Origin: Chloroflexota bacterium
GTDB taxonomy: Bacteria; Chloroflexota; Dehalococcoidia; Lucifugimonadales; JACPCL1
Length of the DNA: 64,000 nucleotides
Direction of reading: 5' to 3'
NCBI GenBank assembly: GCA_016179765.1
Contig: JACPCL010000036.1
Span: 13,916 to 77,915, forward strand
Part shown: in pieces, positions 22,282 through 56,552 of the stretch
How positions within the stretch are numbered: the stretch's first letter is position 1
How the letters are laid out: each line of letters begins with the position of its first letter
Translations under genes and position numbers: made by a program
Notes under the pieces: model-generated
Told to the model about the DNA's origin: nothing
What the model saw: only the letters and a program-made list of their open reading frames with translations
The model's database searches: none

Positions 22282-23397
22282 CTATCTCCGGTCGCGGCGC
22301 TTCATGGCGGTGTTGCGACGCAAGAAGAGTGGGACATCCAGCTCCTCCTCTCTGGGCTCGCCCCTAACTCCCGCCAGGTCCAGGTGGGATAGGATGAGAT
22401 CGTCGTCCGGGACGGTGGCCGCTACCGCCGGGAAGCCGGTGGCGATGATGGTCACCCGCACCTCGTCCTCCAGGGTGGGGTCTTTGCTCATGCCAAAGAT
22501 GATGGTGGCGTCGGGGTCGGCCACGCTCTCCACCATCTGCGCCGCCTGGTGCACCTCTTGCAGCGTCAGGTCACTGCCCCCGGAGATGCTGAGGAGGATG
22601 CCCTTGGCGCCGTTGATCTGAACGTCCATAAGTGGGCTTTCAATGGCTGCGCGGGTGGCTTCGGTGGCGCGGTTCTCGCCAGAAGCGACGCCCAGGGCCA
22701 TCCAGGCGGTGCCCGCTCCGCTCACCACGGCCTTTACATCAGCGAAGTCCAGGTTGATTTCCCCGGTCTCGGTCACCAGCAGGGCAATGGCCATGACGCC
22801 CTGGCGCAGCACGTCGTCGGCCATCTTGAAAGCATCTTCAGTCGTAACATTAGCGTCGGCCAGCTCCAGGAGGCGTTCGTTCGGGATGACCAAGACGGAG
22901 TCCGCCTTCTCCTTCATGTGCTGGATGCCGTCCTCGGCCTGTTTGTGGCGCTTGTGCCCCTCAAACTTGAAGGGCTTGGTCACGACGCCAATGGTCAGGG
23001 CGCCCGTCTCCTTGGCGATCTCGGTGAGCACCGGGGCCGCCCCCGTGCCTGTTCCGCCCCCCATGCCCGCCGCAACGAACACCATATCTGCGCCCCGCAG
23101 CAACTCGTACAGCTCGTCCCGGTCCTCCTCCGCGGCCTCCCGCCCCAGGTCTGGCTGGCCGCCCACACCTAGGCCGCGGGTCAGCTTTGTGCCGATGGGC
23201 ATCTTGTGAGGCACCACCAGCGTCATCAAGTGCTGGGCATCGGTGTTGATGCAGATGTAGTCTACTCCCGGGATGGGCGAAGCCTGGTACATGCGGTTCA
23301 CGGCGTTGCAACCCCCGCCGCCAACGCCAATCACCTTGATCACCGTCTTGCCATTGGGAGCGGACCTGTTTTCCTGGTCATTCATAGCTGTTGCCAC
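22282..23397 (-). CDS. ftsZ: cell division protein FtsZ
   Basis: GVGGGGCNAV and AAGMGGGTGTGAAPV tubulin signature. Confidence 0.95.
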   Translation of the reverse strand: MATAMNDQENRSAPNGKTVIKVIGVGGGGCNAVNRMYQASPIPGVDYICINTDAQHLMTLVVPHKMPIGTKLTRGLGVGGQPDLGREAAEEDRDELYELLRGADMVFVAAGMGGGTGTGAAPVLTEIAKETGALTIGVVTKPFKFEGHKRHKQAEDGIQHMKEKADSVLVIPNERLLELADANVTTEDAFKMADDVLRQGVMAIALLVTETGEINLDFADVKAVVSGAGTAWMALGVASGENRATEATRAAIESPLMDVQINGAKGILLSISGGSDLTLQEVHQAAQMVESVADPDATIIFGMSKDPTLEDEVRVTIIATGFPAVAATVPDDDLILSHLDLAGVRGEPREEELDVPLFLRRNTAMKRRDRR

Positions 23398-32542: not shown

Positions 32543-32582
32543 TTTCTCCCCTTCCCTTTAAGGAAGGGGCAGGGGATTGGGT
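32543..32582. repeat. Rep-A palindromic repeat
   Basis: TTTCTCCCCTTCCCTTTAAGGAAGGGGCAGGGGATTGGGT, same orientation as 31699-31769. Abuts the acsA stop codon. Confidence 0.75.
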
Positions 32583-34182
32583 TACTCCTCCTCCAGGGTG
32601 CTGGTGTCGCCCTCTGGCAGGCCAAGCTCCCGCGCCTTGAGCAGGCGGCGCATAATCTTGCCGCTGCGCGTCTTGGGCAGCGTCTTCACGAAGTCTATCT
32701 CGCGCGGGGCCACCATCGCCGACAGCTTCTGCCGGGAGAAGCGCAGCAGCTCCTGGCGGAGCTGGTCCGTCGGCTCGTAGCCGTCCTTCAGCGCCACGAA
32801 TGCCTTCACGACCTCCATGGCGATAGGGTCCGGCTTGCCAATGACCCCCGCCTCGGCGACGGCGGGGTGCTCAATCAGGGCGCTTTCCACCTCAAAGGGG
32901 CCGACCAAGTGGCCGGCGGTGTTGATGACGTCGTCGGCGCGGCCCACGAACCAGAAGAAGCCGTCCTCGTCCACGCGGGCCTCGTCGCCGGTGATGTACC
33001 ACCCCTTCTTGAACTTGGAGTTGTACATATCGGCGTTATTCCAGTGGCGATGAGGATGGCCCCTGTCTCGGTCTGCCACCAGTTGTCATGGATGGGCTGC
33101 TTGAAGGCCTCCAGCCCCCAGACGATGGCCTCGGGGTTCAGCGGCTCCCCCACGCTGTTGATGTAGCGCAGGCTGGAGAGGTCGTACTGGGAGGTCACCC
33201 GGGTGCCGCCGCGCATCAGCATACGGATGGCCGTGGGCGCGGTGTACCACACCGTGACCTTGTGCTTCTGAATCAGCTCGTACCAGGTGGTAGCCCTGAT
33301 CCCCCCCTCGTAGATAAGCTGGGTAACGCCGTTGCTCCAGGGGGCCAGCATCCCATAGGAGGTGCCGGTGACCCAGCCGGGGTCCGCGGTGCACCAGTAG
33401 ATGTCGTTGGGGTGCAGGTCCAGCACCCACTTGCCCGTCACGTACTGCTGGACGATAGCCATGTGGCGGTGCACCGCGCCCTTGGGCTTGCCCGTGGTGC
33501 CCGAGGTGTAGTGCATGATGGAGTAGTCGTACATGGAGGTGTTGTCCACCTTAAAGTCGGGCGAGGCTCTTGCCATCAACTCTTCATAGCGCAGATCGGT
33601 GGCAGCGATGGGCGTCTTGTCCCGCCCCAGCTTGTTCACGATGACGATGTGCTTCAGCTCCGGCAGGTCCTTGAAGATATGTGCGATGCGACCCCGCAGC
33701 TCCGGCGAGGTCACCAGGACCTTGGCCCCGCTGTCCAGCAGGCGGTCGCGCACCGGGTCGGGGCCGAAGGCGGAGAAGAGCGGCCCGGCGATGGCCCCCG
33801 CCTTCAGGATACCAAAGACGGCGAAGTAGTGCTCCGGGATGCGGTCCAGGAAGGTGAAGACCCGGTCGCCCCGCTGGACGCCCAGGCCCCGCAGCACGTC
33901 GGCGAACCTATTCGTCTCCCGTTTCATATCGGCGAAGGTGTACTGCTCCTGCTCGCCGTTCTTGCCCTCCCAGACCATGGCCCGCTTGCCGGCAAGGGGG
34001 CCGTTGGCGTGGCGGTCAATACACTCGTGGGCCTTGTTCAGGCCGCCGTCGGGTAGCCAGTCTAGCTCGCTGTACACGTCGGTGAACCGGAAGGAGTTGC
34101 GGAGCTTCTGGTAACCCGTGAGGTTTGGCTGCGCCTTCATCCGAGAAGGCGGCGGCTTCTTGGTAGTCTGGTAGGTAGCCAT
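32582..34182 (-). pseudogene. acsA: AcsA-type acetyl-CoA synthetase (AMP-forming) with internal deletion and frameshift
   Basis: Track ORFs 32875..34305 and 32582..33079. The N-part runs colinear to ..[16 protein letters not shown]. The C-part resumes at [30 protein letters not shown] in another frame. ATG 34182 after AGGAGAGG. Confidence 0.8.
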
Positions 34183-34389
34183 CAGACCTCTCCTGGCGTT
34201 GGGTTGCGCGGTAGGCACAAGTCTAGTACGCCTACCTGGGGGAGTCAACGGGCGCGGAAGAGCAACAACTCGGACAAGGCATCGTCCATCCTTTGCTGAT
34301 GGCAACCCGTTGTAGTAGTATTGCTGGCAGCGTCACTCTGTGTTGCGACTTTGCGCGACATTCAACAAAGAGGGTCAGAGATAACAAAA

Positions 34390-35430
34390 ATGAACGCTCC
34401 TGGATTACCTCGTTTTATCTTCCTTGGTGCGAAGCGCCCGGAATTACGTCTAATGGACGACGCAGGCGAGCAACTTCCTTACAGTTTGACCAACATCAAC
34501 GTGTACACTACCTCTGGTGACTTAACAGGAGAGCCTGGTACCCTTAGCTTGGCCAATCTGCTTCGGGGTACAGGGGGAATCATAGGATGGGGGCTAATAG
34601 ACCACTACCGATTGCCAAACTGCTACCTTTGCCTTTCAGGTCGTAGAGTGTGTCCGATGCTTGTCGATAAGGTGGAGGAAACAGCGTATGGCCCAGATAT
34701 TACTAAGGAAGTTGCAGTGCGAAAATTGAGGCTGAAGATGCATGAAAGGCCTCAATTAGAGAAATGTAATACTCTTAAGGTTTTGCTCGAACTTTCCCAA
34801 ACAGGACCCGAGAAACAACTCTTTTCCATGTATTGCGAAGCAGTAATCTCAGGGATAGACCTTAGACAGGTATCAGCCTACGATTTTGAATTTACTGTCC
34901 TTCAAGAGAGTTCCCTTGTGCACCAATACGGCAGCTTGTGGGAAGCGAAACTGCTGAACCTTCCTGCAAGTAGTCGTTCACCATCTGCCCTTACCGCCGC
35001 CATGCTGAATTCACTCGGCCAGCCGGCACTCTTGCCTCAATATTGGCTTGATTGGACCTATGATCCCAAGGCTCCCTCTCATTCCTTGCCCAGACCAACG
35101 CTAGATATGCCAACTAGGATTGACTTTTTTGCTTTTCGGAATGGGAAGCGCATGGCAATTGAAGTAGATGGCCCTGAGCATTATGCCAATTTTGATAGGC
35201 AGAATGGCAAATACGTTCTTAGTGAAGAGGTATATGCCAAAAACCTTAGAATAGATAGATCTATGCGTTTTCAGGGTTGGAAAATACATAGAGTGAGCAA
35301 TTGGGAGGTAAATGCCCAGCCTAACCGGGCATTGGCTGACCTAGCGGATGCCCTGGAATTACCCCTTGAAGGCTGGGGGGTTGAACCATTGCTTCCTGGC
35401 TTGCCAGACATAAGAGACTTGCCGTTTTGA
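34390..35430 (+). CDS. hypothetical protein with C-terminal DUF559/Vsr-like PD-(D/E)xK nuclease domain
   Basis: C-terminus RIDFFAFRNGKRMAIEVDGPEHY...RIDRSMRFQGWKIHRVSNWEV. The N-terminal ~250 aa were not recognised. Clearly lower-GC islet. ATG 34390 preferred to 34321. Confidence 0.55.
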   Translation: MNAPGLPRFIFLGAKRPELRLMDDAGEQLPYSLTNINVYTTSGDLTGEPGTLSLANLLRGTGGIIGWGLIDHYRLPNCYLCLSGRRVCPMLVDKVEETAYGPDITKEVAVRKLRLKMHERPQLEKCNTLKVLLELSQTGPEKQLFSMYCEAVISGIDLRQVSAYDFEFTVLQESSLVHQYGSLWEAKLLNLPASSRSPSALTAAMLNSLGQPALLPQYWLDWTYDPKAPSHSLPRPTLDMPTRIDFFAFRNGKRMAIEVDGPEHYANFDRQNGKYVLSEEVYAKNLRIDRSMRFQGWKIHRVSNWEVNAQPNRALADLADALELPLEGWGVEPLLPGLPDIRDLPF

Positions 35431-35800: not shown

Positions 35801-36994
35801 CTACCCCACCACCCACCCGTACCCTATCCCTAGCGCGCCTCCTCCCGCCACCAGCCACGCCGAGTTGAGGCGCGTGCGGAACACAAGTACCGTCGCTACC
35901 AAGGCCAGCACGATAGTGAAGGGGTCTATGATGGAGGCGCGGCCAAGCTGCAAGGCCACGCCCCCCATGAGGGCCAGGGACGCCACATTCACGCCGTCCA
36001 GGGCAGCGGCGGCCAGAGGCGAACGCCGCACCAGGGGCAGGATGCGGCTCAGGAGCGCAACGAAGACAAAGGCCGGCAGAAAGATGCCCACCGTCGCCAG
36101 GAGAGCCGCCGGCAGCCCGCCCACCACGTACCCCACAAAGGTAGCGGTGGTCAGCACCGGCCCCGGGGTGAACTGGCCGATGGCTATGGCGTCCAGAAGC
36201 TGCTGGTCCGTCAGCCAGCCCAAGCGGTCCACGAAGTCGCCGCGCAGGAAGGCCAGCAATACGTACCCGCTGCCATACAGCACGGAGCCGATCTTGAGGA
36301 AGTTCAGGAAGAGCGTCAGCAGGCTATACGGGGCCGCACCGGCGGGCAGCGTTCCCAGGGAGAGGCTGCCTAGCGGAAGCAGCGCAAGGCCCGCCACGCC
36401 CTTCTTGGCCAGACGTTTGCCACCGTAGACCAGCGCCATGACGATGCCGCCTGCGAAGACCAGTAGCACCTCGTTGACGCCCAGTAGGTAGAGGACCAGC
36501 GCCGCAACGCCGGCGGCTGCCAGCACAGGGCCTTTCACGGCGCGCCGTCCCAAGGCCCACAACGCCTGCACTACAACGGCGATAATGACGGGTTTGATGC
36601 CGTACAGGAGCCACTCGGCCTGGGGCGTGCCCCCGTAGCGTACGTAGGCCATGGCCACGGCCAGGACAATGAGCACGGCGGGGGTGATGAACAGCGCGCC
36701 CCCAAGGATGAGGCCCGGCCATCCGGCGCGACGCTTACCCAGGTGAATGGCCATCTCCGTGGAGTTGGGGCCGGGGATAAGGTTGGTGGCCCCGACCATA
36801 TCCAAGAAGTCCTGGTCATCCAGCCATTTGCGGCGGCGCACCACCTCGTCCCGCATCATGGCGATGTGGGCTGCCGGGCCCCCAAAGCCAATGACGCCTA
36901 GCTTCAGGAACAGCCAGGCAACCTCTCTCAAACGCCCCGGGGTTCCTGTGGCGATTGTGGGCCTCCTGAGGTATGTGCCGTAGGGGCGCAGCAC
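35801..36994 (-). CDS. chrA: chromate transporter ChrA
   Basis: Two CHR halves (FLKLGVIGFGGPAAHIAMM.., FLKIGSVLYGSGYVLLAFL..). The annotated GTG start lies inside a Rep-C palindrome, so the start is uncertain. Confidence 0.85.
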   Translation of the reverse strand: MLRPYGTYLRRPTIATGTPGRLREVAWLFLKLGVIGFGGPAAHIAMMRDEVVRRRKWLDDQDFLDMVGATNLIPGPNSTEMAIHLGKRRAGWPGLILGGALFITPAVLIVLAVAMAYVRYGGTPQAEWLLYGIKPVIIAVVVQALWALGRRAVKGPVLAAAGVAALVLYLLGVNEVLLVFAGGIVMALVYGGKRLAKKGVAGLALLPLGSLSLGTLPAGAAPYSLLTLFLNFLKIGSVLYGSGYVLLAFLRGDFVDRLGWLTDQQLLDAIAIGQFTPGPVLTTATFVGYVVGGLPAALLATVGIFLPAFVFVALLSRILPLVRRSPLAAAALDGVNVASLALMGGVALQLGRASIIDPFTIVLALVATVLVFRTRLNSAWLVAGGGALGIGYGWVVG

Positions 36995-37010
36995 GCTGCG
37001 CCCCTACGGC
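36977..37010. repeat. Rep-C palindrome
   Basis: GCCGTAGGGGCGCAGC-ac-GCTGCGCCCCTACGGC, directly downstream of the peroxiredoxin stop. Confidence 0.75.
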
Positions 37011-37014
37011 ATTA

Positions 37015-37482
37015 TTATTTCCCGGCCAGCTTCTTGATAGCCTCCAAGGACTCCGTGGCGTGCTGCTCGGTGTTAGGCCGGTCATCCACAACGTGGCGGA
37101 TGATTCCCGACTTGTCAATGACAAAGGTGACACGGCGGTCGGAAAGGCGCTCCTCATTGAAGACGCCAAAGGCCTTGGCCGCGGCGAAGGTGGGGAAGTC
37201 GGCCACCACGGGGAAGGTCACGCCGCAGTGGTCAGCGAAGGCCTTCTGGGGAGGGGCGGCATCGGTGCTGGAACCCAGAACCTGGGTTTCTAGCTGCTGA
37301 AACTCCGAGAGCAAGCTCTGGAACTTTCGCAGCTCCCGCTCTCAGCCCCCTGTGAAAGCTCTGGCATAAAAGGCGACGACCACGTTCTGCTTGCCCTTGA
37401 AATCCGTGAGCTTGTACTCCTTGCGGTCAGCGCCGGTGAAGCTGACGTCGGGCACTGGGTCTCCGACCTGTAGCGGTGGCAT
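37015..37482 (-). CDS. Bcp/AhpC-TSA-type peroxiredoxin with in-frame TGA (candidate selenocysteine) at the peroxidatic position
   Basis: ATG 37482 after GGGAGG. One 155-codon frame: [49 protein letters not shown](37344..37342)-ERELRKFQSLLSEFQQLETQVLGSSTD...VTFVIDKSGIIRHVV...KLAGK. A hairpin starts at the UGA. Confidence 0.7.
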
Positions 37483-37532
37483 AGGAACCTCCCTTTGTTA
37501 AGAGCTGCGGGGACACGAAAATGGTGTGGCCT

Positions 37533-37561
37533 ATTATCGCAACGAACCTTGAGCAAGGCAA
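37533..37561 (-). promoter_or_regulatory. candidate peroxiredoxin promoter TTGCCT-17-GATAAT
   Basis: On the minus strand, TTGCCT (37561..37556), 17-nt spacer, GATAAT (37538..37533). Confidence 0.5.
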
Positions 37562-37565
37562 CAGG

Positions 37566-37600
37566 TGTGTAGGGGCGAGGCGGCGATGCGCCCCTACACA
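37566..37600. repeat. Rep-C palindrome
   Basis: TGTGTAGGGGCG...CGCCCCTACACA, 12-bp stem. Confidence 0.7.
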
Positions 37601-37606
37601 TTTCGC

Positions 37607-38910
37607 CTAGGGGAAGTCTGCGTCTGTGCTCGGTCTGGGGGTCGGCCTTGGCAGGGCGGCGCGCACCGCTTCGGCCAGGGTGCGGACGCCCGTGGCCTCA
37701 ATCGACACGCTGCCCGCATCGTCTCGCTGCGACGCTGGGATGACGGCGCGCTGGAAACCCAGGCGTGCGGCCTCGGAGAGGCGGCGGCCAAGCTGGGGGA
37801 CGCCGCGGACCTCGCCGCCCAGGCCAACCTCGCCAATGGCGACGGTCCAGGGGTCAATGGGGGCGTTGCGGAAGCTGGAGGCTAATGCCAGGGCCATGCC
37901 CAGATGAGGAGGAGGCGTCCGAAATCCACGCCCGTGCCCGTGCGCCGGGGCTGCGGGAAGACGGTGTGGGTGGTCAGGGCCTGCACCTCGGCCAGCAGGG
38001 GGCGCGTCCCCTCCATGGACACGACGACCACGGAGCCAGCGACGCCCTGCCGGTCATGGGAGAGGAAGAGGAGGGATGGCTCGGGCACCTCTTCCAGGCC
38101 TGCGCCGCCCATCTGAAAGACGCCGACCTCGTTGGTGGAGCCGAAGCGGTTCTTGACGCCGCGCAGGATGCGGTAAGGGGTGAGGGTATCGCCTTCCAGG
38201 GAGAGCACCACGTCCACCATGTGCTCCAGCGTGCGTGGGCCGGCGATGGTCCCGTCCTTGGTGACGTGGCCCGCCAGCAGGATGGGGACGCCGGTAGCCT
38301 TTGCCCACGCCGTCAGGCGGCGGGTGCACTCGCGCACCTGGGCAATGCTGCCCATGGCCGAGGGGGTGTCCTGGGAGTAGATGGTCTGGACGGAATCCAC
38401 GACGGCGAGGCTAGGCTTGAGCCGGTCCAGGTGAGCCAGAAGGACCTCCACTTCCGTCTCGCTGAGGAAAAAGATACCCTGGCCGGGGACGCCCAGGCGC
38501 TTGGCGCGCAGCTTGACCTGGTGGGCGGACTCCTCGCCGGAGGCGTAGAGGACGCGCAGGCCGGCGGCGGCCAGACGGGCGGAGGCCTGAAGAAGGAGGG
38601 TGGACTTGCCGATGCCGGGGTCGCCGGCCATGAGGACCATGGCGCCCGGGACGATGCCGCCGCCCAGGACGCGGTCCAGCTCGGCGAAGGCGGTGGGAAT
38701 GCGGGGCGAGGCGTCGGTGGAGATGGCGGAGAGCTCCTGGACGGCTGCGCCATCGCCATCTAACCACGGGGCCTTGCCTGCGGGACGGCTGGGCGCTTGG
38801 GCGGCGGCCATGGTGTTCCACTGGCCGCAGGCGGGGCACTGGCCGGTCCACTTGGGAGCTTGGGCGCCGCACTCCTGGCAGGCGTAGATGGTCTTGGTAC
38901 GCTTGTTCAC
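37607..38910 (-). pseudogene. radA: DNA repair protein RadA with internal deletion and frameshift in the Lon-like domain
   Basis: Zn ribbon CQECGAQAPKWTGQCPACGQW, Walker A GDPGIGKSTLLLQ, KNRFGSTNEVGVFQM. ORF 1 ends ..GVDFGRLLLI-WAWPWH-stop. ORF 2 (37607..37897) resumes LGMALALASSFRNAPI..FGEVGLGGEVR in another frame. Confidence 0.8.
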
Positions 38911-39382: not shown

Positions 39383-40288
39383 TCAGATGGTGTTAGACTG
39401 GCGGCGATTTGCTGGAGCCAGTTGTGGCCCTCTGTAGTTCTCCAGGAACGCCAGGGTATCTTCCTTGGTGGCAAACTTACCCGTGATTTCGTCTTCGTTG
39501 TTGTAGACGATTGAAATCTCGAGACGGACAAGGTGACCATGCACCATGAAATCATCGTAGCTCTTGATGAAAACGATAGCTTCATCCGCCGACTTCCAAG
39601 AAGAAGACACTCCGTGCAGGGGGAGCACTCTAATTGAAGCCACGTAGCGAGTAACGCTGCTTTCAAGGTTTATCATGAAAGCCCGGACTTCTTCATTGTG
39701 GGATTCAAGTAACGCGTTTGCCACCCGGCTACGTTGCCTCGCCGCCAGCCGTTCCCAAGCGGAAACCTTACGCTGGACCTCCGAATCTGGCGTGTCTTCA
39801 TCAAAAGAGGCGTCTATCCTGACTTCCTTGAATGCACTGAGCAGAGAGTCATAAGGGAAATAAAGAACCCGGAACTTTTGGGACTCAAGCTGTCTCAGAG
39901 CGCCTTCAGTGAATACTCCCGCAAGGATCGTACCCAGAAAGGGAGCTGAGCTTTGGTGGGTAGCAGCTAGAGGAAGAATTGCTCCCTGTATTTCCTGCGC
40001 TTTGTTCCGCGAATGCTTGGTGTAACGCCTCCATGCTGTTTCAATGAACGCAACTGGAATGCCTATTTCGGTGGCAGAGCCTCCCCTTTCTAGAACATAG
40101 TCAAGATCATGAATGTTCCCATATGAATCTGTCCAACTCACCTTCCGACCCTTACGTGCAGGTCGGGGTCCTTTCTTGTCCAAAAAGAGGGAGTGTTGCC
40201 GCGCAAAATCAGCCAGAATAGGTTCAATAGCTGTTTCCAACACATCCCCAATGATTTGGCCAAACCTGTGCGCGGGCGATTGCGCCAT
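39383..40288 (-). CDS. probable type II restriction endonuclease (partner of adjacent methyltransferase)
   Basis: 301-aa ORF starting 3 nt after the methyltransferase stop. Lower-GC islet. Possible PD-(D/E)xK-like core around HDLDYVLE...VAFIETAWRRYTKH. Family not recognised. Confidence 0.45.
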   Translation of the reverse strand: MAQSPAHRFGQIIGDVLETAIEPILADFARQHSLFLDKKGPRPARKGRKVSWTDSYGNIHDLDYVLERGGSATEIGIPVAFIETAWRRYTKHSRNKAQEIQGAILPLAATHQSSAPFLGTILAGVFTEGALRQLESQKFRVLYFPYDSLLSAFKEVRIDASFDEDTPDSEVQRKVSAWERLAARQRSRVANALLESHNEEVRAFMINLESSVTRYVASIRVLPLHGVSSSWKSADEAIVFIKSYDDFMVHGHLVRLEISIVYNNEDEITGKFATKEDTLAFLENYRGPQLAPANRRQSNTI

Positions 40289-40291
40289 GAC

Positions 40292-41572
40292 TTAACCCTC
40301 GACCCACAGGCAGCCTTCTTGCAACGGCACTCGGTGCTTGCGATTCTTCCACTTGGTGTTCCTGTCCCTGAGTTTCTCAAAACGGTAAGCCTTAAAGCCC
40401 ACACAAACAGCTAGTTGCCCCATCCACTCTTCAACAGGTACGTGTACTCCGTAGGGGGCAGAGTCTCCCACAACAAAGCATACGGCCGCGTTTTTCCGGC
40501 AAACGCGCCTCAGCGCTTGCCAGACATGGAGCATATCAGCGAAATACGCGGCGATCAGAACATCATACTGCTTCTTGCCCCCGTGGTTGCTCCGTTCTTC
40601 GGCGAGCTGTCCGCAAACAGTTCGAATAGCGCCTTCGAACGGGATTCCATTGAGTTGCGTTAGCATGTCTTCAATTGCGGTTTTCTCAGTAGAGACATGT
40701 TGAGAACAGGACCGTACAAGCCCTTTCCTAGCTTTCTCGTGGAGGTCACCCCAGTCAAGAACTTCACCGAGAAAGGTCATCTCGAGCCTGGTGGCATCAG
40801 CGTAATCATAATTGTTCGCATACGGGGGAGAGGTAACAACCAATCCAACCGATTGGTCTTCAATACCTTCACAAGTTCTAGCGTCCGAGAGGCGGATTTG
40901 CGCACTCGGTTCAGCAACCTGGAGTTGTCGGATACGCATGTCCATGATCATTCTGTTTACCTGAGAGGCGAAGGCATCGTAAGGGCGAGCAACTATAGCT
41001 TTCTCTTGACTAGGTAAGACGTATTGCCAAGGCGCCGTGCCGACGTGAGAGCAGGAACGAAGAATACTCACCAAACAAAGCCAGGCCAATTCCGAAACAG
41101 CGCTATAATCCGCGAGCCGTTCCCACGCCGCCTTTAGAGAGTAAAGATCTCTGATAGCATGCTCTGAGTAACACTTCTCTATGAGACGTGGATACTTGGG
41201 TTCGTGTGCTGGCTCGCGTTTTGCGGCGGTAAGAACACGCTCCGCAAAGTCGGCAAACTCTTCTACCCTCTCGTACCAATTCAGCTTTGCCTTAGCTACC
41301 CGGAGAATGAAGGGTTGTGCCTCTAGCCCTAGGGACCGAACCCCTGCTTCTTCAGCAGCAAGAACTGCCGTTCCTACGCCTGAAAACGGGTCAAGGAATG
41401 TTCCACCATTCAATTCGCCACGATGATCGTGGACAACTGTTCTAACCCATTCAGCAGAGAACCCCGCAGGGAACCTAAACCAACCATGTACAGGTAGCGC
41501 CACATTTCGGATGAAAGTAGATGTCCCGTTCCTTGTGGTGGGATAACTGGCGGCTTGCGTCAAAGCAGGCAT
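40292..41572 (-). CDS. DNA amino-methyltransferase (N4-C or N6-A), SPPY type
   Basis: Motif I-like FLDPFSGVGTAVLAAEEAG (aa 59-77) precedes motif IV VVTSPPYANNYDY (aa 245-257). Followed by YFADMLHVWQALRRVCRKNAAVCFVVGDS. Confidence 0.8.
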   Translation of the reverse strand: MPALTQAASYPTTRNGTSTFIRNVALPVHGWFRFPAGFSAEWVRTVVHDHRGELNGGTFLDPFSGVGTAVLAAEEAGVRSLGLEAQPFILRVAKAKLNWYERVEEFADFAERVLTAAKREPAHEPKYPRLIEKCYSEHAIRDLYSLKAAWERLADYSAVSELAWLCLVSILRSCSHVGTAPWQYVLPSQEKAIVARPYDAFASQVNRMIMDMRIRQLQVAEPSAQIRLSDARTCEGIEDQSVGLVVTSPPYANNYDYADATRLEMTFLGEVLDWGDLHEKARKGLVRSCSQHVSTEKTAIEDMLTQLNGIPFEGAIRTVCGQLAEERSNHGGKKQYDVLIAAYFADMLHVWQALRRVCRKNAAVCFVVGDSAPYGVHVPVEEWMGQLAVCVGFKAYRFEKLRDRNTKWKNRKHRVPLQEGCLWVEG

Positions 41573-41705: not shown

Positions 41706-41813
41706 ATGGCGGCAGACCGGCGGATAAATAGGCGGGTGTACGAGGTGTACGGTCTTACTACTGCGGAACGGCGGCTGGTGGGGGGGACGCAGGTTGTCCG
41801 AAGGCCCCTGTAG
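41706..41813 (+). pseudogene. remnant resembling the C-terminal tail of type IIG/Eco57I-like R-M enzymes
   Basis: 35-codon ORF MAADRRINRRVYEVYGLTTAERRLVGG... recalls the ...IDRLVYELYGLTEEEIxIVEG tail. No upstream body is present. Confidence 0.3.
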
Positions 41814-41842
41814 GGGCGCAGCATGCTGCGCCCCTACAGGGG
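41805..41842. repeat. Rep-C palindrome (perfect)
   Basis: CCCCTGTAGGGGCGCAGCATGCTGCGCCCCTACAGGGG. Confidence 0.8.
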
Positions 41843-51886: not shown

Positions 51887-52005
51887 TCCTGGTGTTTAGA
51901 GCGAGGTGGCACCACCCGTTCCCATCCCGAACACGGAAGTGAAACGCCTCAGCGCTGACGATATTGTGCCCGCGAGGGTATGGGAAAATAGGCCATCGCC
52001 AGGAC
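51887..52005 (+). rRNA. rrf: 5S ribosomal RNA
   Basis: UCCUGGUG...CCCAUCCCGAACACGGAAGUGAAACGCCUCAGCGCUGA...CGCCAGGA matches the bacterial 5S consensus, and helix I closes between the two ends. Confidence 0.85.
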
Positions 52006-55142: not shown

Positions 55143-55916
55143 TTGGCCTCTCCCCAACCTCCGCCCAAAACGATCCGCTTGTCCCGCCAGGGGCCAGTGG
55201 CCTCCATACTCCTCCGACGACCTCGCGCTGCCAACCGGGTGAATCTGCGCATGGCTGAGGAGCTGGCCCTGGCTTGCGCGGCAATCAACCAGGATGACGC
55301 TATCCGGTGCGTAATGCTCTCCGGCAGCGGCGACGTTTTTTCCGCCGGCTGGGAGACGCCCCCGGTCACACCCGCTGCCGGACTCTCTCGCTACCAGGCC
55401 GCCATCGCCATTGCCAGCCTGCATGCGCCGGTTGTGGCCGCCATCAATGGCGACGCCATTGGCCAGGGGCTGGAGCTGGCCCTGGCCGCCGACCTTCGTA
55501 TCGCCGCCTCCACTGCTCACTTTGCCATGCCGCAGGTGGGCCACGGGCTGCTGCCCTGGGACGGCGGCACGCAGCGACTGGCCCGCATCGTGGGCCGCGC
55601 CTATGCCCTGGAACTGCTGCTGACGGGGGAGACCGTGGACGCGGCCACCGCCCTGCGCATGGGGCTGGTGAACCGCCTTGCGCCGCCCCAAGAGTTGCGC
55701 CAGGCGGTAGATGCGGTGGTGGGGCAGGTGATCGCCGCTGCGCCCATCGCCATACGCTACGCCAAAGAGGCGGTGCGGGACGGCGCCGAGCTGGCTCTAG
55801 CCCAGGGCTTGCGCTTAGAGGCAGACCTGACTATCCTCTTGCAGGGTACAAAAGACCGGGCGGAGGGAATCCGCTCCTTTATGGAGCGGCGGCCCGCCGT
55901 TTTTAGAGGCGAGTGA
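55143..55916 (+). CDS. enoyl-CoA hydratase/isomerase (crotonase) family protein
   Basis: VMLSGSGDVFSAGWE, AAINGDAIGQGLELALAADLRIA. TTG start. Confidence 0.85.
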   Translation: MASPQPPPKTIRLSRQGPVASILLRRPRAANRVNLRMAEELALACAAINQDDAIRCVMLSGSGDVFSAGWETPPVTPAAGLSRYQAAIAIASLHAPVVAAINGDAIGQGLELALAADLRIAASTAHFAMPQVGHGLLPWDGGTQRLARIVGRAYALELLLTGETVDAATALRMGLVNRLAPPQELRQAVDAVVGQVIAAAPIAIRYAKEAVRDGAELALAQGLRLEADLTILLQGTKDRAEGIRSFMERRPAVFRGE

Positions 55917-55958
55917 CCAGGTGGTTGCTACGCCACTGGGGAAGATTCGGAGGCCACG

Positions 55959-56552
55959 GTGAAATTGCGGCTGGACCTGCATACGCACATCTGGGAAGCA
56001 TCAGGTTTCCAGTCCCCTAATCTGGCCTGGGCGGAGAAGGTCGTCCAGCAGTGCAAGGCCAGGGGCATTGACGGTATTGCCATCACCGAGCACAAAATCC
56101 TGGAGCACAGCTTCGCCTACAAGCGCATCATTGAAACGCACTTCCCTGGCCAGCTCCTCGTCTTCCCTGGCTGGGAGATAGAGGAGCACTTCATAGACGA
56201 CTACTTTCAGACTCGGGAGGTGGGGGAGTTCCTGCTCCCCAATGGCAAGGTGTTCCGCAACTACTGCCATCCGGGCCATCCCTCCCGCACCATAGAGATA
56301 GACAGCGTCCAGTCCATTGAGGTGGACAACTGCCTGCACAACTGGCACATAGACAAGAAGCGGGTGGAAGCGGTAGCCAAGGAGCACAGCCTGCTCCTGA
56401 CCAGGGTGAGCGACGCCCACAACGTGGAGGACATAGGCAAGAACTACATTGAGGTTGAGCTGGAGGAGCTATGCGCCAGGGCCAAGGAGGTCCCTGGGTG
56501 GGGCCAGAGCATGAGGAGCTACGATGGCGACCCCGACCGTCCTGTACAATAA
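55959..56552 (+). CDS. PHP-like metal-dependent phosphoesterase
   Basis: LDLHTHIWEASG, GIAITEH and VSDAH motifs. GTG start. 29-nt overlap with the next gene. Confidence 0.6.
   Translation: MKLRLDLHTHIWEASGFQSPNLAWAEKVVQQCKARGIDGIAITEHKILEHSFAYKRIIETHFPGQLLVFPGWEIEEHFIDDYFQTREVGEFLLPNGKVFRNYCHPGHPSRTIEIDSVQSIEVDNCLHNWHIDKKRVEAVAKEHSLLLTRVSDAHNVEDIGKNYIEVELEELCARAKEVPGWGQSMRSYDGDPDRPVQ

Follow-up and report, generated by a model that had tools for sequence, protein, structure and literature searches.

An AhpE-like peroxiredoxin gene from a Dehalococcoidia bacterium with an in-frame UGA as the probable codon of its peroxidatic residue

Peroxiredoxins carrying selenocysteine (Sec, U) in a T-x-x-U active site, Prx (TxxU), are an established and verified family of bacterial selenoproteins (PMC13188914, PMC1794560). 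Described members include PrxU of Eubacterium acidaminophilum and proteins from Deltaproteobacteria, Clostridia and marine metagenomes. The present work concerns a gene on the minus strand of a 64,000-nucleotide (nt) stretch of DNA, hereafter the window, from a Dehalococcoidia bacterium of the phylum Chloroflexota (contig JACPCL010000036.1 of assembly GCA_016179765.1), in which a peroxiredoxin reading frame is interrupted by a single TGA. Sequence comparison indicated that the gene most probably encodes a Sec-containing peroxiredoxin, whose peroxidatic residue 47 (T-G-G-U) would be specified by the UGA at 37344..37342; a probability of about 0.88 is assigned to this reading. The predicted protein has in common with the described Sec-peroxiredoxins the PF00578 domain, Sec in T-x-x-U, the existence of Cys orthologues and a putative recoding of the bacterial type that depends on a structure immediately following the UGA. 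In contrast to them, it lies on an AhpE-like branch whose members come from Chloroflexi and Acidobacteria, and most of these members lack the Pro of PxxxTxxU, which a 2026 review described as highly conserved. Since the class of Sec-peroxiredoxins is well known, as the preliminary description of this DNA had already recognized, the finding is confirmatory rather than surprising.

Among enzymes of known structure, the nearest relative is AhpE (Rv2238c) of Mycobacterium tuberculosis, a 1-Cys peroxiredoxin reduced via mycoredoxin. It is similar in size (about 153 amino acids, aa), and the blocks FTG-x-C, FP-x-x-x-DF, GVFNE and R-x-TFV-x-D-x-SGIIR follow one another in the same order in both proteins. 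AhpE, however, combines Cys with Pro (FFPLAFTGIC), whereas the window protein would combine Sec with Ala, and the window clade has an extra invariant cysteine, Cys86, at a position that is Ser in AhpE. Partners of the mycothiol/mycoredoxin type are typical of Actinobacteria, and Chloroflexi are not expected to have them. The location of Cys86, 39 residues past the peroxidatic residue and near the predicted end of helix alpha-3, resembles that in atypical 2-Cys PrxQ/BCP enzymes such as the BCP of Xanthomonas campestris, a spacing which we take to be comparable with that of alpha-3-type BCPs. As regards recoding, the hairpin of Escherichia coli fdhF follows right after the UGA, and its apical stem-loop, which binds SelB, starts at about 11 nt.

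Reading frame, protein family and conservation of the TGA

The complete coding sequence of the 155-residue AhpE-like peroxiredoxin occupies 37015..37482 (minus strand). Translation from the ATG at 37482..37480 gave 46 codons up to the TGA at 37344..37342 and another 108 codons up to the TAA at 37017..37015. A Shine-Dalgarno-like GGGAGG is located at 37488..37493 (minus strand), 5 nt before the ATG. These coordinates, the single TGA and the GGGAGG had been given in the preliminary description, which also held that the gene is split by open reading frame (ORF) calling, and all of them were confirmed. The mechanical ORF listing yields a 46-aa ORF (37342..37482) and a 99-aa ORF (37015..37314), and the identical two-piece split is present in public gene calls for the same species. 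Gene callers split this type of gene here and in more than 100 related genomes; in metagenome-assembled genomes (MAGs) deposited in GenBank, a fragment of 99-105 aa is annotated under the label 'redoxin domain-containing protein'.

With the TGA translated as Cys, residues 6-131 matched the Pfam family AhpC-TSA (PF00578) over profile positions 1-124 of 124 (E = 1.5e-30), scoring 106.1 bits against a cut-off of 26. The closest solved structure was AhpE (E = 6e-23, 39% identity over 127 residues); its entries headed the PDB ranking at 84 bits, and archaeal Bcp-4 came close behind at 74 bits. None of the NCBIfam equivalogs was reached by the window protein, the scores being 50.8 bits for the PrxU equivalog NF040737 (cut-off 270) and 70 bits for the Bcp equivalog NF006960 (cut-off 140). 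The initial assignment to the Bcp/AhpC-TSA peroxiredoxins is upheld for the AhpC-TSA domain and corrected in that AhpE, rather than Bcp or PrxU, is the closest characterized relative. Judged by its TxxU motif, the predicted protein belongs to the known Prx (TxxU) selenoprotein family, as an AhpE-like member and not as a PrxU or Bcp equivalog. A literature search for a natural Sec-containing AhpE, or for Sec within a PxxxTxxC motif, returned nothing specific, which is not proof of absence. As a consequence of the fragment annotation and of the missing equivalog, both the antioxidant capacity and the selenium dependence of the organisms are under-called. This affects Dehalococcoidia/SAR202-type bacteria of groundwater, lakes and the sea, as well as soil Acidobacteria.

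In the alignment, the TGA occupies the column that holds the FTG(G/I)C cysteine of the Cys homologues P0001-P0005 and the peroxidatic Cys of AhpE (FTGIC). The putative Sec codon (37342..37344, minus strand) is accordingly placed at the peroxidatic position of TxxU, where the catalytic Cys had been expected from the outset. Thr44, U47 and Arg117 are all present in the predicted protein, and Thr (or Ser) and Arg are conserved in 165 out of 165 homologous loci. The codon of Arg117, the conserved active-site arginine of peroxiredoxins, lies at 37132..37134 (minus strand), is invariant in the same 165 loci and corresponds to the Arg of RGTFVVD in AhpE. Cys86, encoded by TGC at 37225..37227 (minus strand), is a candidate resolving cysteine and is kept in 58 of 59 Chloroflexi-type Sec forms. 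The Acidobacteria-type Sec forms lack it, as do most Cys forms, so its putative role would be clade-specific.

In order to survey homologues, species-representative genomes were scanned, which gave 80 loci, and a metagenome scan was added; 165 well-covered loci were counted in total. TGA was present in 117 of them (Sec forms) and TGC or TGT in the other 48 (Cys forms), at the identical codon; Trp or Gly was never observed in this column. In the genome scan, TGA was found in about 46 loci of Chloroflexi/Dehalococcoidia/SAR202 (45-90% identity), with the frame open on both sides, and in three Bryobacterales loci, while TGC or TGT occurred in a single Dehalococcoidia locus (L020) and in about 30 loci of Acidobacteria and Acidimicrobiia. 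The metagenome scan contributed dozens more UGA forms, mainly from soil and peat. Homologues with TGA (more than 100 loci) extend down to about 36% identity, and closed Dehalococcoidia chromosomes (OZ252212.1, OZ240235.1, OY762956.1 and OZ220698.1) are among the carriers. Three independent assemblies of one species agree on the TGA, namely the window, GCA_016202445.1 (L001), which differs from the window by a few single-nucleotide polymorphisms, and Logan SRR12113426 (L002).

A protein search retrieved five full-length Cys homologues (..AFYPRAFTGGCERE..) and 28 proteins of 92-107 aa that span only the C-terminal two thirds and are all truncated at the TGA site, the signature of a family severed at one site. 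The ratio of nonsynonymous to synonymous substitution rates (dN/dS) between the window gene and its clade relatives was 0.02-0.2 both upstream (codons -40..-1) and downstream (+25..+100) of the TGA, at dS values of about 0.6-2. The locus is a genuine and intact peroxiredoxin gene. One Dehalococcoidia MAG, JAUSCR01, contains two diverged copies of the UGA gene, L012 and L021, whose products are 79% and 73% identical to that of the window.

RNA structure downstream of the UGA

Constraint on the RNA was evaluated by a structure-free test, in which the fraction of differing codons is taken over those sequence pairs whose amino acids are identical. In the Sec forms, the synonymous difference was 0.31 in codons +1..+24 and at least 0.48 in each non-overlapping 24-codon segment elsewhere, whereas the profile of the Cys forms was flat at about 0.49. 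The dip holds separately within clade c1 and clade c2. Pair counts are phylogenetically non-independent and derive from one alignment and one tree, a caveat that applies equally to all segments. Because the minimum follows the UGA in the Sec forms only, it reveals an RNA element of about 72 nt, and the 24 codons concerned (37270..37341, minus strand) are regarded as a putative recoding region of the Sec insertion sequence (SECIS) type. On these grounds, a predicted recoding-type RNA element is present and is specific to the UGA forms. The 81 nt after the UGA gave a mean folding energy of -29.7 kcal/mol in the Sec forms and -21.8 kcal/mol in the Cys forms, at equal GC, and this region folds more stably than other regions of the same genes. 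For these 81 nt, z was -2.46 and 3 of 200 shuffled sequences folded equally well.

The minimum-free-energy fold of the window RNA, termed fold A, is formed by 37306..37344 (minus strand). It has a lower stem of 9-10 bp (GAGAGCGGG/CUUGCUCUC) that includes the UGA itself, a 2x2 AG/AG internal loop, a CUG/CAG stem and the apical loop AAGU at nt 19-22, counted from the U of the UGA. Across 38 relatives, 75% of the cells were paired over nt 1-39 and four pairs were changed on both sides. A second structure, fold C, is a long hairpin of nt 11-53 (37292..37334, minus strand) with the outer stem AGCUGC.../...GCAGCU and CUUG as its apical loop (nt 30-33). RNAalifold returned it as the consensus for clades c1, c1b, c2 and c3, and in the 38 relatives 82% of its cells were paired and six pairs were changed on both sides. 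Folds A and C are mutually exclusive and nearly equal in energy in the window, the two values, with hairpin 2 included in each, being -29.1 and -29.6 kcal/mol. When nt 1-14 were forced to be single-stranded, as would be the case with the UGA in the ribosomal A site, the inner part of fold C became the best fold. Both folds outdo shuffled and slid controls, as folds derived from the same sequences tend to do. Compensatory changes were seen in locus L089, where pair 6-34 of the lower stem of fold A and pair 12-52 of the outer stem of fold C are both changed from G-C to A-U.

Further downstream, hairpin 2 (AACCCAG-GUU-CUGGGUU, nt 57-73 after the U of the UGA; 37272..37288, minus strand) appears in the consensus folds of clades c1, c1b, c2 and c3. 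In the 38 relatives, 83.5% of its cells were paired and two pairs were changed on both sides. Its ACC and GGU codons are near-invariant (synonymous variation 0.00 and 0.15), whereas other Thr and Gly codons vary. Different hairpins were found in other groups: clade c4 has only the simple hairpin UUGUUGG-GUU-CCAACAA at nt 14-30, in the position of fold A, and the Acidobacteria-type genes have UAUCA-GGC-UGAUA at nt 22-34.

The hairpin of about 37 nt first proposed as the SECIS corresponds to fold A. Its stems and tandem G-A region were recovered, while the suggested 9-nt apical loop is closed by two more pairs in RNAfold, leaving a loop of 4 nt. Likewise, structured RNA does follow the UGA, but the proposed hairpin is not its sole extent, as about 72 nt are constrained, including codons +14..+24 (nt +42..+72) beyond that hairpin, and fold C competes with it. 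The arrangement is similar to the fdhF SECIS in that a stable structure starts at the UGA and that fold A has a bulged pyrimidine on its 5' side and GU in the loop. It differs by the constrained length of about 72 nt, by two exclusive folds and a second hairpin, by the quite different hairpins of sister clades and by the lack of any sequence similarity. The candidate loops (nt 19-22 and nt 30-33) presumably lie within the distance range usually given for bacterial SECIS elements.

Decoding of the UGA and alternative explanations

Two genes near the peroxiredoxin gene are broken in the window assembly. A 100-nt out-of-frame deletion relative to L001 was found in radA (37607..38910, minus strand; junction near 37885-37900), which could be a true strain variant or an assembly artefact. 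The AMP-binding enzyme gene acs (32582..34305, minus strand), acetyl-CoA-synthetase-like, switches frame near 33037-33047, which suggests an internal deletion; no intact relative of it was found among the homologous loci examined. Disrupted neighbours had been invoked as making a recent TGC/TGT-to-TGA nonsense mutation, and hence a pseudogene, plausible. The disruption is present in the window assembly, but the radA deletion has no bearing on the TGA: L001, in which RadA is intact (467 aa) and the deletion is lacking, has the TGA as well, as does L002. Moreover, conservation of the TGA in more than 100 loci, together with purifying selection on both halves of the gene and a downstream RNA that is constrained in TGA forms only, excludes a nonsense mutation, and this earlier alternative is refuted. 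The same two deletions might argue for a sequencing or assembly error at the TGA, yet three independent assemblies agree there, and dozens of unrelated sequences, comprising MAGs, closed chromosomes and metagenome contigs, have the codon too. Pseudogene formation and assembly error are both excluded as the source of the TGA. It would also be conceivable that the annotation is correct and the locus yields two separate small proteins, of 46 and 99 aa, given that gene callers deliver exactly these two ORFs and that a TTG start is available for the second one. However, the Pfam domain crosses the junction unbroken, the 99-aa piece is devoid of the T-x-x-C/U active site, the pieces are always in frame with constant spacing across all relatives, and the start codon of the second ORF varies among them (97-107-aa products). 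The chance that two proteins are encoded is accordingly considered negligible.

A further alternative is that the UGA is read through without Sec, by a reassigned code (Trp or Gly), by near-cognate read-through or by a Cys-charged tRNA(Sec)-like tRNA. In its favour, no Sec machinery turned up in the available sequence, and one annotation of the Joint Genome Institute (JGI), protein P0015 (JGI 3300076147; L084, 148..609), gives Trp at the active site. The underlying DNA nevertheless reads TGA; the Trp therefore stems from the annotation, in which a code with UGA as Trp was apparently applied to the contig. UGA is in use as a stop, both for 17 of the 61 long ORFs of the window and for the peroxiredoxin gene itself in loci L007-L017, which has this stop besides the internal UGA; a global reassignment is thereby ruled out. 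The alternative residue in the column is Cys and never Trp or Gly, and the UGA-specific local RNA element suits recoding of the SECIS type. In addition, the class relies heavily on Sec, Dehalococcoidia MAGs being among the most selenoprotein-rich bacteria with 46-49 selenoprotein genes (PMC13326102), and Dehalogenimonas has selC, genes of Sec synthesis and a selenocysteine-specific elongation factor (PMC4918011). Read-through without Sec is judged improbable, and decoding of the UGA as Sec is preferred.

Several observations weigh against a Sec-decoded gene. Neither the 64-kb window nor the sequences flanking the Dehalococcoidia loci yielded tRNA-Sec, selA, selB or selD, the tblastn probes being approximate E. 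coli SelA, SelB and SelD sequences. The window protein is devoid of the canonical active-site Pro of PxxxTxxC, having Ala40 instead (GCC at 37363..37365, minus strand, as read from the sequence). Taken alone, the hairpin (61 nt) reached only z = -0.95, with 37 of 200 shuffled sequences folding equally well; it is the comparative evidence, and not the fold energy, that sets the RNA feature apart from chance. Folds A and C, with their loops at nt 19-22 and nt 30-33, are exclusive and similarly supported. A G within the first two apical-loop positions is common in the bacterial SECIS consensus, and neither fold has one. Finally, nothing resembling a SECIS was matched in Rfam, whether gathering or permissive thresholds were applied.

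Several apparent matches to Sec genes were rejected. The 'SelB' match of the window is IF2 (infB, between nusA and truB), those of L024 and L077 are EF-Tu, and the matches of L028 and L047 resemble the latter in score and position. 'SelD' matches about 9 kb upstream in clade c2 belong to an AIR-synthase-like protein (93 bits against a SelD cut-off of 125). ARAGORN, applied to the window and all loci, reported tRNA-Sec solely in two Bryobacterales loci. At a distance of 2-3 kb from the Cys-type homologue, Bryobacterales loci contain a tRNA-Sec gene and a SelA-like gene; in an Acidimicrobiia MAG, the Cys-type homologue is adjoined by a candidate SelD-like ORF with 43% identity to the approximate SelD probe. 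The coordinates of these Bryobacterales and Acidimicrobiia candidates are 12968-13064 in L069, 12969-13065 in L075, about 12305-13066 in L062 and 10550-11551 in L050.

Exchange between Sec and Cys was observed at close range in locus L083 (363..824, GCA_030693085.1, P0001), a Cys form with TGT that carries the whole downstream SECIS-like element and hairpin 2. The motif Pro is present in it, and Leu takes the place of Cys86. From its sequence, L083 is a one-nucleotide Sec/Cys pair to the putative Sec forms and apparently arose by Sec-to-Cys conversion very recently. Natural Sec/Cys pairs are numerous in the family and could serve enzymologists asking what Sec buys a peroxiredoxin. When the window was scanned for ORF-TGA-ORF arrangements with a coding-like GC pattern on both sides, the peroxiredoxin gene was the sole candidate. 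The ORF pair at 55143-56552 was rejected as a further selenoprotein gene, as it resembles two adjacent genes.

Proposed mechanism and genomic context

In the mechanism proposed, SelB with Sec-tRNA(Sec) would recognize a hairpin of the constrained region while the ribosome holds the UGA in its A site. About 13 nt after the UGA would be inside the ribosome at decoding, which would leave the inner portion of fold C, or the apical portion of fold A, available for recognition. The enzyme is expected to reduce peroxides via a selenenic-acid intermediate, with Thr44 and Arg117 completing the active site. Resolution of this intermediate may fall to the clade-specific Cys86, giving a selenenylsulfide, or to an external thiol.

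Of the 48 Cys forms, 47 retain the Pro of PxxxTxxC; of the 117 Sec forms, 105 have lost it and show Ala in 49 cases, Ile in 35, Val in 16, Leu in 3, and Gly and Phe in one each. The substitutes are Ala or Val in Chloroflexi and Ile, Val or Leu in the Acidobacteria-type sequences. On a neighbour-joining tree, parsimony gave about nine changes for each of the two characters (Sec/Cys and Pro), and the Sec forms that keep Pro adjoin Cys clades. A speculative extension, which we regard as rather unlikely to hold as a whole, would be that Sec made the active-site Pro dispensable, its repeated loss then blocking reversion to Cys like a ratchet, and that the element of about 72 nt passes from one of its two exclusive folds to the other on arrival of the ribosome, the second hairpin being located after these folds. 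If true, such a Sec/Pro ratchet would bear on the question of why enzymes retain Sec.

The peroxiredoxin gene looks like its own transcription unit, judging from signals predicted on either side of it. Besides the Shine-Dalgarno-like motif, a sigma-70-like promoter match (TTGCCT, 17-nt spacer, TG-GATAAT) is present at 37533..37561 (minus strand); it is a consensus match only, from a scan that gave 2 sites where 0.1 were expected. Directly 3' of the stop, a 17-bp GC-rich palindrome (36975..37012, no strand assigned) is a likely transcript-end hairpin and contains a copy of the repeat TAGGGGCG...CGCCCCTA. This intergenic palindrome, TAGGGGCG-N10-CGCCCCTA, was found at 36981-37006 and 37570-37596, on both sides of the peroxiredoxin gene, and again at 41811-41836. 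Half-sites are located at 22359 and 43790, and the octamer occurs 8 times where 3.2 are expected. The repeat may be a REP-like (repetitive extragenic palindromic) element or a terminator.

Comparison of the neighbourhoods of the loci revealed no conserved redox partner gene. In clade c1, CoA-transferase genes lie near the peroxiredoxin gene; in clade c2, genes for Ni-superoxide dismutase and major facilitator superfamily (MFS) transporters do. In L036 (8822..10021) and other clade c2 loci, the predicted Sec-peroxiredoxin gene divergently adjoins a gene with a Ni-superoxide-dismutase domain (E = 2.7e-46), a head-to-head arrangement that fits an antioxidant role for the putative enzyme.

Elsewhere in the window, a 5S rRNA gene was located at 51888..52004, and no 16S or 23S rRNA gene lies within the 64 kb. 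No family match was obtained for the ORFs at 34321..35430 and 39383..41572 (369 aa and 301 aa), which adjoin a gene with a DNA-methylase domain (426 aa). The third-position GC of ORF 34321..35430 is unusually low at 0.45, compared with about 0.8 in the neighbouring genes, and the DNA here may have been acquired.

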